This document shows, piece after piece, positions 640 through 64,000 of a stretch of DNA of 64,000 bases (positions are counted from its first letter, which is position 1; every line of letters starts with the position of its first letter). The notes below the pieces were generated by a model. It was not told the origin of the DNA. It did not search any database and was given only the letters and a program-made list of their open reading frames with translations. Source of the stretch: a phage; the sequence record PX880103.1. One strand, written 5' to 3'. The position numbers were made by a program, and so were the translations under genes.

Positions 640-905
640 TGTTCATCCTTTAGAGTTTGGTTTACAGCTCTATTATAAATCAATTCATCATTAAGCTCAG
701 TCAAAGACCTATGGTACGTGGTTCTAACTTTATTTCCTTGCATCCAATGCTTGACGTAAATGAAACCTTGCTCTACACATTTTTTAAAAATTCGTTCGTC
801 TTTTTGAGCTCGGAATTCTGGATTGCATCTAAAAAATTGATTTACGTGACCATAATCACGTGTAGTATTACCTTCATTTTCATAAATAGTGTGAACGACA
901 AACAT
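636..905 (-). CDS. hypothetical protein (T4 30.1 position)
   Basis: 89-aa ORF; stop overlaps the gene 30 ATG (ATGA coupling). Confidence 0.55.
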   Translation of the reverse strand: MFVVHTIYENEGNTTRDYGHVNQFFRCNPEFRAQKDERIFKKCVEQGFIYVKHWMQGNKVRTTYHRSLTELNDELIYNRAVNQTLKDEQ

Positions 906-1768
906 TAGAATGCTCCTTGGAAAATATTATCACCACTAGTAATTCTATTAAAATACCCTGCGTCGCCAGGCTTAATATAACTCCACGTATGGAATGGATT
1001 CATATGATATAGATGTGTATAATATGGATTATATGGATGTGTATAATATGGATGATATGGATTTAATCCAGGAGTTCTCCATGTAGTATTTTGGCGAAAA
1101 GAATCGTTTTTAACCATCTTCTCAATTACATCTTTTATAGCTTTTTCACTATCAAAACTTTCTTTATTTTCCTTCGGCGAAAAAAGCTTATTTTCTACAT
1201 CATTCCATGTATAAACTCGCTGAGCAGTTTTTGGAATATTGTCACGCTCTCCTCGAGCCATCCAATAAACTGGAACATTTAATATTTCACTCGCATGATC
1301 GCAGTGGTGAGCGAGATCGTCAATATAACAAATTACGTTATATTTCTCTTTTGCCTTTTTGAACAACTCTTCTTTTGAAGAATCATGACCACACATCATT
1401 ACTTCTGAGAAGGCACCAGGAAAAAGAGCATTCAAATTAAATTGACGATTCAACAGAGCGTCAATAGAATCACCCAATGCTGTAACAGCTACAAAATTAT
1501 AATCTTCTTTTAATTTGTTAATTACACACAGGGCATCTTTATATGGAGACAAGTAACGAATAAAATCCGAACGATTGTATTTTTCAATTAACTTGACGCC
1601 AAGTTCTTCATCACAGTTAAAGAGTTTACCAGGAGAAATAAATTTCTCATCCTGGATCATTTTTAAAATATGTTCTAACGGAAGATTATATTTCTGAGCA
1701 AAATAAGGAAGGCCTGATTGCCAGCTTAAACATACTCCATCAATATCAGTTAAAATAGTAGGCTTCAT
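905..1768 (-). CDS. HAD-like hydrolase-family protein with C-terminal Tyr/His/Pro-rich repeat
   Basis: 287-aa ORF; N-terminal LTDIDGV resembles HAD motif I (DxDGx); C-terminus NPYHPYYTHPYNPYYTHLYHMNPFHTW is encoded by a DNA tandem repeat. Confidence 0.6.
   Translation of the reverse strand: MKPTILTDIDGVCLSWQSGLPYFAQKYNLPLEHILKMIQDEKFISPGKLFNCDEELGVKLIEKYNRSDFIRYLSPYKDALCVINKLKEDYNFVAVTALGDSIDALLNRQFNLNALFPGAFSEVMMCGHDSSKEELFKKAKEKYNVICYIDDLAHHCDHASEILNVPVYWMARGERDNIPKTAQRVYTWNDVENKLFSPKENKESFDSEKAIKDVIEKMVKNDSFRQNTTWRTPGLNPYHPYYTHPYNPYYTHLYHMNPFHTWSYIKPGDAGYFNRITSGDNIFQGAF
990..1075. repeat. in-frame tandem repeat (~18-21 nt unit, atgtgtataatatggatt-like) inside the 905..1768 ORF
   Basis: Read directly: repeated atatggat / atgtgtataatatgg units. 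Confidence 0.6.
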
Positions 1769-2229
1769 AAAGAGTCTCTTAATAGGTTTAACACATCAAT
1801 AAATTCAGCTTCGGTTAGTATTGTATCATCTTTTGTTAGACCACTAGCCATGCTGTGCTTCAAAACTTTTCCTTTCGAGGCTTGTAATGCATCACGAAAG
1901 CCCCTGTTTTGGAACGCTGCTTCAAAATATGCATTTGTGTATAATTCTTTCCACGCCGGGGAGTATCTTGAAAACGGAACTCCAAGCCAGAACAACGTGC
2001 CACGATCCTGAGCTCTAGCATAAGACCTTCCAGCTTGTTGGGCGGCAAGCCCGGATAACCCAAATATACGACGTTGCTGTTCAACATTTTTCACCTTACA
2101 CCCTTGGAGGAATCCTTCGAGACCTCCAAATTGAATGCCATCCATAACGAAAGGCCATTGGGCGAAATTACTTAATGCACATGATGGCCATTTAAAATTG
2201 CTTCTTATCTCTAGCTCAGACATTTTCAA
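1765..2229 (-). CDS. NADAR (YbiA-like) domain protein, putative ADP-ribose processing enzyme
   Basis: 154-aa ORF; motif ALSNFAQWPFVMDGIQF...EGFLQGCKV resembles the FSNF..WP..DG...EHYFQA.KF signature of E. coli YbiA as I recall it; size fits. Confidence 0.5.
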   Translation of the reverse strand: MKMSELEIRSNFKWPSCALSNFAQWPFVMDGIQFGGLEGFLQGCKVKNVEQQRRIFGLSGLAAQQAGRSYARAQDRGTLFWLGVPFSRYSPAWKELYTNAYFEAAFQNRGFRDALQASKGKVLKHSMASGLTKDDTILTEAEFIDVLNLLRDSL

Positions 2230-2422
2230 TACTTATAATTTCAACATCAGCCCAATGACCATAGCAAGGAAGACGAAATTCAACTGGCCAGTTAGGGTCC
2301 TTTTCTAATATAATAGACTGAACTTGTGGCTCTTCATATTCATCGGTATACGGACCTTTATACGTTACTTTATATGTGACCTTAATGTACTTAATTCCAA
2401 AAATCTTATTAATTATATTCAT
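2216..2422 (-). CDS. hypothetical protein
   Basis: 68-aa ORF, overlapping stop/start with neighbours. Confidence 0.5.
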   Translation of the reverse strand: MNIINKIFGIKYIKVTYKVTYKGPYTDEYEEPQVQSIILEKDPNWPVEFRLPCYGHWADVEIISIENV

Positions 2423-2616
2423 ACTAATTCCTTTAATCCGTAAATAGGAGATAATTCATCGCCCATACGAAGGTCTTCATTTCCATCTACCCAGGAAACA
2501 ATATAAGCCTCTTTTATTTGAATACCACTCCATTTAAATGGAGGTAGAACCTTAGAAATTAATCCAGGTATACCAACTCCCTTTAATTCAACAGTTTGAC
2601 CTAAAAAGAATTTCAT
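2419..2616 (-). CDS. hypothetical protein
   Basis: 65-aa ORF in translationally coupled chain. Confidence 0.5.
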   Translation of the reverse strand: MKFFLGQTVELKGVGIPGLISKVLPPFKWSGIQIKEAYIVSWVDGNEDLRMGDELSPIYGLKELV

Positions 2617-2903
2617 TAGAACCTCATCTGAAAGCCATGCGATTTAACATTACCGCCGCCAATATCAGAAATATTAATTTCACGCGCAATTGAAGGGTCA
2701 ATGTCAATTTCACGATTGAGTTTAGTGATAGCTAAAGTATCGCGCCCATTTACAGTACGGAACTCTAAAGGACATACTACATTAACGTAGTTTTTAATCG
2801 ATTCGCTGGTAGGTTGCAAATGAGCAGGAAGGTCTTTAGGCGCCTTAGAGAAAACCACTTCACAGAAATTTTTGCGGGTATCAAAATAAGTAGTCATAAA
2901 CAT
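2616..2903 (-). CDS. hypothetical protein
   Basis: 95-aa ORF. Confidence 0.55.
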   Translation of the reverse strand: MFMTTYFDTRKNFCEVVFSKAPKDLPAHLQPTSESIKNYVNVVCPLEFRTVNGRDTLAITKLNREIDIDPSIAREINISDIGGGNVKSHGFQMRF

Positions 2904-2944
2904 AGTATTTTCCTCAGTAAGGGGCCGAAGCCCCTCATTTTATT

Positions 2945-3310
2945 TTAAATATCAAATTCGTTAAGAACTACATCAAAGATTGCTTCAAGATGCTCAGGTT
3001 TAACTCTGTTACTCAGAATATGACGAATCCAAGTTTTAACCAGAAGCTTGCGATTAACGCCATTCCAGCAAGGATGAGTCCCTAAATCACGTTGACGAAA
3101 ATCATCATCCAAAGCGATTTTGAAGTTGGAACCTTTCATTGTGATTGAAACCGTGATGCCATTTTCAAATCGCATATAAACGTAGTTAGGAGTCATATAC
3201 TGTTCAATTTCGCATACTGATCCATTTTGATGTTTCCAAAGGCAAATAGTATCAATAGAACCTGCAATACCATTAGAAACATATTTACGTTCAAAGTTGA
3301 TGTAGTTCAT
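2945..3310 (-). CDS. hypothetical protein
   Basis: 121-aa ORF. Confidence 0.55.
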   Translation of the reverse strand: MNYINFERKYVSNGIAGSIDTICLWKHQNGSVCEIEQYMTPNYVYMRFENGITVSITMKGSNFKIALDDDFRQRDLGTHPCWNGVNRKLLVKTWIRHILSNRVKPEHLEAIFDVVLNEFDI

Positions 3311-4396: not shown

Positions 4397-4645
4397 TTAC
4401 TTCAGTGTTACCACAAAGTGACGAACTGCTTTTCGTGCAGCAGAAGCCAGAGGCTTAGCATATTTAAGTTCATCTTTTTCCTGAAGCTCAGCAGCTAGTG
4501 CAGTTTGAGCAGGATTCAGATGTTTGAAATAACGCAGGATTTCAAGAGCTTCGGCTTCAACATCAATAGATGCGCCATAGTTTTCGTGACCATTATTCCA
4601 TGCGTTTCGTTGCAGTTCAAGAGCGTGTTGTAATTGTTTAATCAT
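4397..4645 (-). CDS. rIII: RIII lysis-inhibition accessory protein
   Basis: 82 aa, same length as T4 RIII; sequence MIKQLQHALELQRNAWNNGHENYG; position upstream of gene 31 as in T4. Confidence 0.85.
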   Translation of the reverse strand: MIKQLQHALELQRNAWNNGHENYGASIDVEAEALEILRYFKHLNPAQTALAAELQEKDELKYAKPLASAARKAVRHFVVTLK

Positions 4646-4792
4646 TTAAAAATTCTCATTAGAGATTAAAACTCAGTAGTCACGTTCTTCTGAATTTCAC
4701 TTCCTTTCGGCAAGTCTCTCAGTTGTAGACTACCACATAGAATTGTTCGGTTAACTTATTATTCCGACACCCAATTCATATTATTATTTATA

Positions 4793-5128
4793 TCACTTAT
4801 AAAGACACGGAATAGCTTTATAGTGACAGGTAACGAATTTTTGTTTAATTTCTTTTGGCTGCTTAAGACCCAGAGCTACAAAAGGATGCGGAACATTTCG
4901 AATTTGACCAACTGGAAGAGAAGTCAAATCGCCAACTTCGCAGAAACCTTTAGGAACATCAGGACCGACAGAGTGAACTACACACAGTTCAGGAACTTCA
5001 CCTTGGACACGTTTACCAATAATAAGTCCTGATTCTGTAACTTCTTCATCACCGGCTTGTGCAGGTTCAGAAACTAAAATAACATATTCACCGACAGCAC
5101 TAATTGGTAGCTGTTGTACTTCAGACAT
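4793..5128 (-). CDS. 31: gp31 co-chaperonin (GroES-like) for head assembly
   Basis: 111 aa, T4 gp31 length and position; flexible-loop-like region. Confidence 0.88.
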
Positions 5129-5184
5129 CGTTTTTCCTTTTTGTTAACAGATGAATTAATAATAACAAATAATTCTTAAAGCAT

Positions 5185-5493
5185 TTATTTACCAATAAAT
5201 TGGAGTAAATGCTCAACTTTCATACCATTAACGGAAATCAATTTGTCAATAGAAAAACCTCGCCATGCACCAAGCTCAACATCAAATACTGGAATCATGT
5301 CAGTAGATTCTTTCCGAGTAGATTCAGTCAATTTGCCAGTTTGCATGGTTGGCATAAAGTCTGCATCACGAGTACCTTTCATAGTACGAATAGTACCATC
5401 AGACTTTTCAAAAACTACGTTTGAAACACCCATGGACAATTTAGTTTTCAAAATTTCACGAATTGCTACTTTCTGCTCAGTTGTCAGTTTCAT
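5185..5493 (-). CDS. hypothetical protein (31.1 position)
   Basis: 102-aa ORF. Confidence 0.55.
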   Translation of the reverse strand: MKLTTEQKVAIREILKTKLSMGVSNVVFEKSDGTIRTMKGTRDADFMPTMQTGKLTESTRKESTDMIPVFDVELGAWRGFSIDKLISVNGMKVEHLLQFIGK

Positions 5494-5730
5494 TTATTTA
5501 CCTATTACAGTTTTAATATGAGTTGTTCCACGTTCTTTAAGGGTGGAAAGTAATTTTTGGCATTTTTCTAAATCAGATTTCCAACTATATGGTTTATCAA
5601 TACAAACCCAATTTGTCTTATAATACTGTTTCCATTTAGAGAAAAAATATTTCTTATACTCTACAGCAAATGAGATGTTCTCGTTAGAATAAGAACTAAT
5701 TGCTGTGAGCTTTACTAAACGAAATTTCAT
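5494..5730 (-). CDS. hypothetical protein (31.2 position)
   Basis: 78-aa ORF. Confidence 0.5.
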   Translation of the reverse strand: MKFRLVKLTAISSYSNENISFAVEYKKYFFSKWKQYYKTNWVCIDKPYSWKSDLEKCQKLLSTLKERGTTHIKTVIGK

Positions 5731-56370: not shown

Positions 56371-56889
56371 TCAATAACCTCGGTCTTGACGAGCGAAGTT
56401 TTCAGCATTTTTCAGATAATAAAGTTTAAAGATTTCTTCAGCCGTAAGACCGAGACCTTGGAACATGTTCAGAACGAAATGAAGAATATCAATCATTTCG
56501 AATTTAATTTCCAACTGGTCTTGTGGAGATAAGTCAGTAATCAGAGTTTCACGACGTTCACCGTGTTGCGACTTCCAAGGCTTCCATACAGCAGATGCAT
56601 CTTTTTCGCCATTGCTCATACCACCAAGAGAAGTCAGAAGTTCGCGGAATTCATCATCAATATAATCTTTCTGATTACGCAGCCAATCAACAACTTCACC
56701 TGCAGTAGCCAAATCATCAGGATGACGGTTATATTCAGGTTTATCTTTAGCTAAACGAACCTGCAGAGATTTCTGCATATCAAGCATAACTTGCAACGGA
56801 TCTTTTTCATCACCGAGAATATCCCAGTATTCATTTTGAGCTTTATCAGCGCCTTCGATCAGTTGACTACATTCGTTGAAATGTGGCAT
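56371..56889 (-). CDS. 56: gp56 dCTPase/dUTPase (MazG-like)
   Basis: 172 aa ~ T4 gp56; MazG-like EMIDILHFVLNMF helix; adjacent to soc. Confidence 0.85.
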   Translation of the reverse strand: MPHFNECSQLIEGADKAQNEYWDILGDEKDPLQVMLDMQKSLQVRLAKDKPEYNRHPDDLATAGEVVDWLRNQKDYIDDEFRELLTSLGGMSNGEKDASAVWKPWKSQHGERRETLITDLSPQDQLEIKFEMIDILHFVLNMFQGLGLTAEEIFKLYYLKNAENFARQDRGY

Positions 56890-56890
56890 G

Positions 56891-57541
56891 TTATTTTTCC
56901 TTTCTTATGAAGTTTTCTATCATATGTCTATAGCAGATATTAGGATAACCTGCCTTGACAGCTATTTTATTAAATTTTGTGCGCTTAGGTCTATTATTAT
57001 AAACCCATAATTCATAAAGCGCATCATAACTATTCCATATTTCTCCTCGCCTAGGATTTGGTAAACCATATCGAGGTGAATTTTTACCGCTAAATCTTCC
57101 TTTTCGGGCTTTACTCATATTAGCCTTGGCTTCATCGGATATAATTTTACCTTTATGAGCTAGACGCATTTTGGCTTTAGTTTCTTCTGGGGTCTTTTTG
57201 CCTTTAATCCATGACGGCTTGCCATATCTAGGATTATTTTCACCCGAGAAAAGAACAGAGTTTTGGATTTTAAGGGTTTCTATTAATCTACTTGTTAATT
57301 TAACACCTTTATTATATCGCATTAAATTTACAGCATAATGCAATCCTCTCACATCTGGATATATTTTAGTTAATAATCTATGAGCTATAAAATGCTCACG
57401 CGCAGTTAACTCAACAAGATTGTTTTTGTCATCTGCTCCTCCTATACATCTAGGAATTATATGATGGCGTTCTTTATATCCGCCAAGATGCCGGCATTTA
57501 GCTTTTGTAATTAAAGCCGAGTAAATTTTTTGGTAATTCAC
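56891..57541 (-). CDS. HNH homing endonuclease with NUMOD3-like DNA-binding repeats
   Basis: 216 aa; HNH core ERHHIIPRCIGGADDKNNLVELTAREHFIAH; repeats TPEETKAKMRLAHKGK and SDEAKANMSKARKGR; starts with GTG. Confidence 0.75.
   Translation of the reverse strand: MNYQKIYSALITKAKCRHLGGYKERHHIIPRCIGGADDKNNLVELTAREHFIAHRLLTKIYPDVRGLHYAVNLMRYNKGVKLTSRLIETLKIQNSVLFSGENNPRYGKPSWIKGKKTPEETKAKMRLAHKGKIISDEAKANMSKARKGRFSGKNSPRYGLPNPRRGEIWNSYDALYELWVYNNRPKRTKFNKIAVKAGYPNICYRHMIENFIRKEK
56891..57541 (-). mobile_element. freestanding homing-endonuclease gene inserted between genes 56 and 61
   Basis: HNH/NUMOD3 architecture typical of T-even mob/seg elements; intergenic position between conserved core genes. 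Confidence 0.5.
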
Positions 57542-61922: not shown

Positions 61923-62285
61923 TTAAAAGAATTTAAATTTTTTCTTTGACCTTTTATTAAATGCATCTTGCAGTTGCATTGTAATACATTTTTCTACATG
62001 AGGAGCTAACTCAGCTTTTCTTTCTTGGTCAAGAACAGCAAAGTCCATTACAACCTTTCCATCAACCCAATCCAGTTTAGTTACATACACTATATGTGTA
62101 GAACCATCTTCTAGTTTAATGACAATCTCCTGGATAACATTTTCCATAGCGGATTTAATTATCTTAAGAGACTCATTAAAAAGACGTTCTTTTCTTTCTT
62201 CTTCCCCCTCCGAAGAGGGGGATTCATCGATAATTTCTAGATCTAAATCTAAATCATCTTTATTCATTAAATTCTTCCATATCAC
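61923..62285 (-). CDS. 40: gp40 head vertex assembly chaperone
   Basis: 120-aa ORF between 41 and uvsX as in T4. Confidence 0.65.
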   Translation of the reverse strand: MIWKNLMNKDDLDLDLEIIDESPSSEGEEERKERLFNESLKIIKSAMENVIQEIVIKLEDGSTHIVYVTKLDWVDGKVVMDFAVLDQERKAELAPHVEKCITMQLQDAFNKRSKKKFKFF

Positions 62286-63441
62286 TTAACTGTTCGAGGT
62301 CAGTTTCTAAATCAGCTGCTGATTTACTTTTACTTTCTGGAGATTTAAATTTTTCAACCTTTGAGTTAATCAATTCATCAACTTCAGCTTCAACAATTTC
62401 ATTACTATCAATAGCACCTAACTGATAAGCACGTTTAATAGCATCTCGGAATGGTTGATGTTTAAATAAAGGACCCCAGAATGTAGTGCAGTTGGTATCT
62501 TTTGCACGCCAAGATTTTTCTTCACGAATCATCTCGCCGGTTTCTTCATCAAGAAATTCACGAGCATACCAACCGTTCTTAGGTTTTACCACAAATCCTA
62601 ATTCTAGAGCCATATCTAACAATCCAGAATAAGGATCGATACCACCGTCAAATTTAACATCAATAAAGAATTTACTTTTTTCTTTAACGGTACGAGATTT
62701 TTCTACATTTAGAACAAATTGATACCCTTGAAGATCGGAACCATCTTTAATCTGGCGCTTACCGATAATGAATACAGTATCAGCCGAATACATTACGCCT
62801 GTACCACCTGTCATCACGGTTTTACTAAACATTTCAATTGTTTCAATTGTATGGTTAACCGCAACACATGGAATATTTTTAATGCTAAAATAAGGAGTAA
62901 CAATACGGAATAATGACTTCAGTGATTTAGCACGAGTCATATCTGCCACAGATTTTTCATTCAAGGCATCTTCCGTTTCTTTCTTAGAAGCCATATTACC
63001 GATTGAGTCGATGAATACAATAACCTTTTCACCACGCTCAATAGCTTCAAGCTGGTTCACCATATCAATTTTCAGCTGTTCAACTGACTGGATTGGCGTA
63101 TGAATTACTCGTTCCGGGTCAACTCCCATGGATCGCAAATAAGCTGGAGTAATACCAAATTCGCTATCATAGAATAGACAAACCGCGTCAGGATATTTGT
63201 TCAAATATGCCGCAACCATAGTCAAAGACATATTTGATTTAAAGTGTTTAGAAGGTCCTGCGAAAATAGTTAAACCAGACTGCATACCGCCATCAATCGC
63301 GCCAGAAATAGCGATATTAAGCATTGGGATTTTTGTACGGATTACATCCTTTTCATTAAAGAATTTAGACGTAGTCAGTTCAGCAGTCATTTTAGAAGTG
63401 GAAGCTTTAATCAAACGGGATTTTAAATCTGCAATAGACAT
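62260..63441 (-). CDS. uvsX: UvsX recombinase (RecA-like)
   Basis: 393 aa; N-terminus SIADLKSRLIKASTSK, Walker A GPSKHFKSN, acidic C-terminus as in T4 UvsX. Confidence 0.93.
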   Translation of the reverse strand: MSIADLKSRLIKASTSKMTAELTTSKFFNEKDVIRTKIPMLNIAISGAIDGGMQSGLTIFAGPSKHFKSNMSLTMVAAYLNKYPDAVCLFYDSEFGITPAYLRSMGVDPERVIHTPIQSVEQLKIDMVNQLEAIERGEKVIVFIDSIGNMASKKETEDALNEKSVADMTRAKSLKSLFRIVTPYFSIKNIPCVAVNHTIETIEMFSKTVMTGGTGVMYSADTVFIIGKRQIKDGSDLQGYQFVLNVEKSRTVKEKSKFFIDVKFDGGIDPYSGLLDMALELGFVVKPKNGWYAREFLDEETGEMIREEKSWRAKDTNCTTFWGPLFKHQPFRDAIKRAYQLGAIDSNEIVEAEVDELINSKVEKFKSPESKSKSAADLETDLEQLSDMEEFNE

Positions 63442-63518
63442 TCATTTTTTCCATAGGCATCATTATATTTTCCTCACTGGTTAAAGATAGAGTAATTATA
63501 ACACAATAAATTTAGGCA

Positions 63519-64000
63519 TTAATCAACTGCTATTGGATGAATAGCATTAAACTTATGAAATGCTTCTGATTTTTCTTTACGCGAAACACACATGCGAAGA
63601 ACCTTTAGTGGTTCATCTTCTTCACCCAACGATTTTCGTTTTTCAATATTCGATGTTTTCCAACGAGCTTGCTCTGGAAACTCTCTATTGATTTGCTCAA
63701 GCGCTCTATTATGTTTAGAATTACTACGAATTGAACTGCACCCGCCAGGAGCTTGTGCTTTTCCAGATACAACCAGATATTTGAACAAGGCCAAATGCGG
63801 ATAACCTTGATTAATTAAATTGAGAAATGCATACATATCTTCGCATAAATCAATTTTTCCATACCCAATTTGTTCTGTCGTAAGTTTTCCGAGGTCATAC
63901 CATGTATTCGTGAATCCATATGAATTTTCACGATAATTACCCCAAGATGAAGTAATTTTAAAAATTGGTAAACGAGCATGACCATGATAATACCCGCAAT
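63519..64000 (-). CDS. C-terminal part of an ORF continuing beyond the right edge (T4 beta-gt locus equivalent), unassigned
   Basis: Minus-strand frame open from 63998 to stop at 63519 (track shows only the last 105 aa); does not match T4 beta-gt or gp42 as I recall them. Confidence 0.55.
   Translation of the reverse strand, partial: CGYYHGHARLPIFKITSSWGNYRENSYGFTNTWYDLGKLTTEQIGYGKIDLCEDMYAFLNLINQGYPHLALFKYLVVSGKAQAPGGCSSIRSNSKHNRALEQINREFPEQARWKTSNIEKRKSLGEEDEPLKVLRMCVSRKEKSEAFHKFNAIHPIAVD

Follow-up and report, generated by a model that had tools for sequence, protein, structure and literature searches.

A truncated frame upstream of uvsX in a T6-like phage, very probably the 3' part of a T6-type beta-glucosyl-HMC-alpha-glucosyltransferase gene

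The window considered here is a stretch of 64,000 nucleotides of phage DNA (sequence record PX880103.1). At its far end an open frame occupies 63519-63998 on the minus strand. The frame ends in a TAA stop at 63519-63521 and is translated without interruption into 159 amino acids (CGYYHGHARLPIFKITSSWGNYREN...KFNAIHPIAVD), while the remaining two minus-strand frames of the same interval are full of stops. Because the frame runs on through the last full codon without a stop, the truncation is due to the window and is not biological. A program-made list of open reading frames, which omits frames running off the end, contains a nested ATG-initiated frame of 105 amino acids (63519-63836). An earlier, sequence-only reading had described a truncated ORF of which the C-terminal part is visible here, and that description is accurate; the length of 160 residues given for the visible part is corrected to 159. 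The frame corresponds to codons 122-280 of 280, plus the stop, of the gene variously called ggt or ba-gt (TAGT family). The visible part, residues 122-280, makes up 57% of the protein, and the 5' 121 codons lie past position 64000.

The locus is fixed by the neighboring gene. The RecA-like recombinase gene uvsX, a 393-amino acid ORF at 62260-63441 (minus strand) which every matching record labels uvsX or recombinase, starts at 63441, 77 nucleotides downstream of the ggt stop and on the same strand. Next come 40, 41, dmd, 61.4, sp, 61.2, 61.1 and the primase gene 61, the canonical T-even order. Phage T6 (MH550421.1) has its genes arranged as 43 - imm.1 - imm - 42 - ggt - uvsX - 40 - 41. Gene 42 is next to ggt in both T6 and T2; in the window only the uvsX flank is visible. 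In IMG/VR relatives, both T2 records and a second T6 record, the full-length gene has 279-280 codons, starts MIQFVIPSYQRVGAVSALDMFP..., and at its own start either adjoins the end of gene 42 or overlaps it. An intact 5' part of T6 type would read MIQFVIPSYQRVGAV...IWMIDDDTT.

The 77-nucleotide spacer between ggt and uvsX (63442-63518, minus strand) was compared among four sequences: the window, one IMG/VR contig, T2 and T6. They are 100% identical there, so that the spacer is more conserved than the synonymous sites of ggt, which vary. The spacer contains AATGCCTAA and, 12 nucleotides further on, a TATAAT preceded by TG. The arrangement AATGCCTAA-N12-TATAAT with its TG resembles what we take to be the MotA box and minus-10 element of a T4 middle promoter, and the spacer may hold a candidate middle-type (MotA-dependent) promoter for uvsX-40-41. 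A generic sigma-70 scan did not call the TATAAT site, and it found no more promoter or terminator sites than in shuffled sequence. In a search of 62200-64000 against Rfam the only match was a sub-threshold one attributable to chance (SCARNA7, 17.5 bits where 65 are required).

Two other frames elsewhere in the window were noted. A 216-amino acid ORF at 56891-57541 (minus strand) combines an HNH motif (HHIIPR...N...H) with repeats of the segment GxNxPRYG, and resembles homing endonucleases of the mob or seg type; it is weakly similar to the C-terminus of T4 SegA (E 4e-7). This ORF lies between primase gene 61 and the ORF at 56371-56889, which is presumably the dCTPase gene 56. A 287-amino acid ORF at 905-1768 (minus strand) carries near its N-terminus a DIDG motif of the kind usual in HAD-type phosphatases, and its C-terminal tail is rich in Tyr, Pro and His. 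When the 64-kb window was searched by tblastn with T4 alpha-gt, none was found, and the best match (1130-1558, E 0.012) falls in this unrelated HAD-type-hydrolase-like ORF, where it was rejected as chance or generic Rossmann-like similarity. In T4 the alpha-gt gene is about 13 kb beyond the locus described here, so the corresponding position is outside the window.

The identity of the truncated frame is given by its close relatives. The C-terminus of T6 ggt agrees with the fragment at all 159 residues, and nucleotide identity with T6 across uvsX-ggt is 98.8%. The fragment matches PHROG 842 ("beta-glucosyl-HMC-alpha-glucosyltransferase") at E 1.4e-42. In tblastn against phage records the best E value is 3e-107; 396 records are at least 99% identical to the fragment, and about 200 T4-like phages of Klebsiella, Enterobacter, Citrobacter and Salmonella are 60-80% identical. 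A megablast of 62800-64000 matched 740 phage records, about 470 of them at 95-99% identity, and with few exceptions these last are members of Tequatrovirus from the hosts Escherichia, Shigella and Yersinia. The annotation under the matches is repeatedly beta-glucosyl-HMC-alpha-glucosyltransferase, including ggt of phage T6. An identical genome was not found among the phage records: the best match reaches 99.0% across 1.2 kb, and across 24 kb the figure is about 96%.

The truncated ORF is thus very probably (roughly 95%) the C-terminal 57% of a T6-type beta-glucosyl-HMC-alpha-glucosyltransferase, with the role in forming gentiobiosyl-5-hydroxymethylcytosine (gentiobiosyl-hmC) that is proposed below. 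The remaining doubt about identity comes only from the 121 N-terminal codons beyond the window. The sequence-only reading had named as one option the alternative, beta-alpha glucosyltransferase of T2/T6-like phages, and this option is borne out by the complete identity to T6 ggt, the shared locus and the family assignment (PF20691) of the full-length protein. Its fallback, that the frame encodes some other DNA-modification enzyme, becomes superfluous since the beta-alpha type holds. The beta-alpha glucosyltransferase genes of T2 and T6 were reportedly cloned and sequenced by Winkler and Rueger in 1993 (Nucleic Acids Res 21:1500). The gene is the known T2/T6 enzyme, ordinary in this phage group, and represents no new biology.

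Family membership is best seen in the full-length protein. T6 ggt scores 35.8 bits against PF20691 (TET-associated glycosyltransferase), for which the gathering cut-off is 27.5 bits. The fragment alone has no match in either Pfam or NCBIfam because the PF20691 profile mostly covers the N-terminal part. A search of PDB sequences with full-length T6 ggt gave no meaningful match (best E 1.4). With no solved structure of a sequence relative to draw on, the fold was taken from a structure model of a close homologue, in which a GT-A fold is seen. A search for homologous proteins returned 8 proteins only, 0 of them identical. Family depth was therefore taken from an exhaustive search of representatives with an 81%-identical full-length homologue (P0001), which gave 392 clusters at E <= 1e-3.

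Conservation was counted in an alignment of 76 of the 392 representatives. In the numbering of P0001, the residues invariant in all 76 members are R11, D80, D174 and G206. Conserved in at least 90% are I6, P7, D79, D81, G185, G205 and R211, and in 70-90% E35, T62, R63, N145, E173, C207, N217 and P228. Seven residues of the fragment (E53, D54, G65, G85, G86, C87 and R91) match sites that are 80-100% conserved in the family. Two motifs stand out in the visible part. The first is a Glu-Asp pair encoded at 63837-63842 (minus strand), fragment E53-D54, equivalent to E174-D175 of 280; its Asp is invariant in the 76 members, its Glu is present in 84%, and in the homologue model it opens a helix after the central sheet. 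The second is GGC...R (PGGCSSIR; G85-G86-C87...R91), encoded at 63726-63746 (minus strand), with conservation in the 76 sequences of 99% and 100% for the two Gly, 80% for Cys and 96% for Arg. The DDD (DxD) motif, residues 79-81 of 280, is 97-100% conserved in the same 76 members and lies upstream of the window edge. Inverting GT-A enzymes use DDD to bind the metal together with the UDP-glucose diphosphate. An acidic residue further towards the C-terminus, which in GT2 belongs to the (T)ED motif, is the base activating the hydroxyl of the acceptor. By analogy with GT2, we infer that the Glu-Asp pair at 63837-63842 is the probable catalytic base of an inverting GT-A enzyme.

The position of the gene raises the question of T4 beta-gt, the product of which adds beta-glucose directly to hmC. 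The slot between gene 42 and uvsX is syntenic with T4 b-gt, and a study of phages in the Durham collection has likewise described TAGT as syntenic with T4 beta-GT (PMC13390438). One could then see the frame as a diverged T4-type beta-glucosyltransferase of GT-B fold (CAZy GT63), a reading to which we give next to no probability in view of the sequence comparisons. BLASTP of full-length T6 ggt against the 351-amino acid T4 beta-gt yields chance segments only, the best having E 0.27 over 10 residues. In Pfam, T4 beta-gt is assigned to PF09198 at 9.4e-98; full-length T6 ggt is assigned to PF20691 only. T4 beta-gt is also not found by tblastn in the 64-kb window (best E 1.4), and the homologue model has a GT-A fold. 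The view in the sequence-only reading that the peptide is unlike T4 beta-gt therefore stands. The full-length check that it called for could be made with the T6 protein, which carries the identical fragment, and BLASTP shows no significant similarity to T4 beta-gt there. A further remark, that beta-gt is found immediately beyond uvsX in T4, needs correction: the homing endonuclease gene segA intervenes between b-gt and uvsX. When the spacer of the window was compared with 4563-5400 of the T4 locus (L002), segA was seen at this place in T4, and it is missing from the window as well as from T2 and T6.

Compared with eight alleles (two from T6, one from T2 and five from IMG/VR), the window ggt shows 4-17 substitutions each over 480 nucleotides. 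Summed over the eight, 88 of 89 codon differences are synonymous, and the exception is the Pro/Ser difference in T2. From these codon comparisons, ggt is under strong purifying selection. Together with the PHROG 842 and tblastn E values given above (1.4e-42 and 3e-107), the 88/89 ratio also shows the frame to be a real gene.

Lesions in the 5' part do occur in deposited T6 sequences. T6 record MH550421.1 has an in-frame TAG at codon 10 (MIQFVIPSY, stop, RVG...; 5533-5535 of its locus, L001, minus strand), as a result of which ggt is annotated there from Met20 as 261 amino acids. The 31-mer centred on that T is unique to MH550421.1 among 50,697 phage records, and the version with CAG occurs in 31. 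In the second T6 record, NC_054907.1 (ggt at 2220-3059 of locus L008, minus strand), Gln10 is present, and a 3-nucleotide deletion turns DDD into DD (IWMIDDTTI). Each of these lesions may be a laboratory-stock mutation or a sequencing error. They nevertheless suggest how the gene in the window could be inactive, through a lesion beyond position 64000 that would leave DNA with alpha-glucosyl-hmC only: in both T6 GenBank records the damage falls within codons 1-81 (the amber codon 10 and the missing Asp of DDD), and T2 has a substitution, R11H, at an Arg invariant in the family. Such inactivation is very unlikely, because the visible part has no non-synonymous change from T6 and its synonymous substitutions are as expected under selection, the 31-mer with the amber codon is confined to a single one of the 50,697 records, and the 280-codon frame is intact in 5 of 5 IMG/VR relatives.

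Identity, locus, homologue fold, conservation and selection were computed; activity, deletion phenotype and DNA composition come from the literature; the roles of residues we infer. T2 and T6 have no beta-gt, and in these phages a second transferase adds a beta-linked glucose to alpha-glucosyl-5hmC to form gentiobiosyl-5hmC; the gentiobiosyl share of hmC is about 5% in T2 and 72% in T6 (PMC11078745; bioRxiv 10.64898/2026.02.25.707755). When the gene is deleted from T6, the DNA has alpha-glucosyl-hmC only, and on this DNA both the Brig1 glycosylase and BapA, an enzyme that removes glucose, can act; the T6 deletion mutant is also more sensitive to Brig1 (PMC11078745; bioRxiv 10.64898/2026.02.25.707755). 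Composition has also been determined for phages whose enzyme has an identical fragment. The protein encoded by EH2 and QOTSP, of the Durham collection, is 100% identical to the window fragment by tblastn, and LC-MS of their DNA has shown about two-thirds alpha-gentiobiosyl-mdC and one-third 5-hmdC, with alpha-glucosyl-mdC in traces only (PMC13390438).

These observations suggest a pathway in three steps. The ggt product would be a single-domain GT-A glycosyltransferase of about 280 amino acids, expressed with the DNA-metabolism cluster 43-42-ggt-uvsX-40-41. First, gp42 and the replisome would place 5-hydroxymethylcytosine in the DNA. An alpha-glucosyltransferase, which would be encoded elsewhere in the genome, would then add an alpha-linked glucose. 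Finally, ggt would transfer a second glucose from UDP-glucose onto the first in beta-1,6 linkage, giving gentiobiosyl-hmC. An inverting mechanism fits this last step, since the glucose of the UDP-glucose donor is alpha-linked and the product is beta-1,6. The N-terminal half beyond the window would bind the nucleotide sugar (IPxxxR, TR and DDD motifs). In the visible C-terminal half, the Glu-Asp pair would probably serve as the base, as in the GT2 analogy, and GGC...R is likely to shape the site for the acceptor or the DNA. Once in place, the second sugar would shield alpha-glucosyl-hmC from host enzymes that recognise it, e.g., the Brig1 glycosylase.

Specificity does vary within the TAGT family: some homologues accompany alpha-GT, some beta-GT, and others are solitary (PMC13216743). 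With the donor-binding half beyond the window, the gene might encode a TAGT enzyme with a different donor, or with beta-glucosyl-hmC or bare hmC as acceptor, as has been proposed for solitary or beta-GT-associated homologues. This is very improbable here, given that over its 159 visible residues the protein matches without exception both the characterised enzyme of T6 and the enzymes of phages with measured gentiobiosyl-mdC; with 98.8% nucleotide identity to T6 across uvsX-ggt, a switch would need to sit wholly in the other 121 residues. The preferred reading remains a T6-type enzyme that would act on alpha-glucosyl-hmC.

The difference between T2 and T6 in gentiobiosyl content may have a basis in the protein. 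The R11H substitution in T2 ggt (AP018813.1, MH751506.1) affects the Arg that is invariant in 76 family members and lies in the N-terminus, where the nucleotide would be bound. A second substitution, P251S, affects a Pro that is invariant among close homologues; the site corresponds to 63609-63611 of the window, where Pro is encoded. R11H and P251S are found together in all seven T2 records and in SV76, and T2-specific 31-mers are confined to those records. From the conservation of the two sites, and the confinement of the substitutions to T2 and SV76 records, it could be suggested that R11H and P251S, and not differences in expression or in alpha-gt, account for the value of ~5% in T2 compared with ~72% in T6. 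We regard this as a tentative and rather doubtful explanation; if it holds, the window would be predicted to have a high, T6-like level.

For the phage itself, the result is mainly a gain in annotation. It places the window as a T6-like Tequatrovirus, grouped with T2 and T6 and apart from T4. If the 5' part and an alpha-gt are intact, the DNA should carry gentiobiosyl-hmC and no beta-glucosyl-hmC. The modification has implications for which host defences act on the phage (Brig1-type glycosylases, GmrSD/BrxU type IV enzymes) and for the restriction and sequencing enzymes used on its DNA.

Among known systems, T6 ggt (AXN58083.1, YP_010067197.1) is the closest. It differs from the window fragment at 4 synonymous nucleotides in 480, with no amino-acid difference in the visible part, and has the same orientation and position directly upstream of uvsX with an identical 77-nucleotide spacer. 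The T2 enzyme (AYD82639.1), encoded at the same locus, is identical at 158 of 159 residues. Its single difference is Ser (EDESLK) in place of the Pro (EDEPLK) shared by the window and T6. Pro 251 is the only diagnostic residue in view, and there the window allele is of T6 type. In a wider sense these enzymes belong with the PF20691 TAGT group, a GT-A family close to GT2, and full-length ggt relatives score above its gathering threshold. The T-even enzymes differ from the TET-associated TAGT in that hmC already carries the sugar on which they act, and no TET/JBP oxygenase gene lies next to theirs. T4 beta-gt (GT-B, PF09198, PDB 1JG7) occupies the same slot between gene 42 and uvsX and shares with ggt the UDP-glucose donor and a beta-linked product on hmC DNA. 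In contrast, its fold is GT-B where that of the ggt family is GT-A, there is no sequence similarity between them, and its acceptor is hmC itself rather than the alpha-glucosyl-hmC used by the T6-type enzyme.
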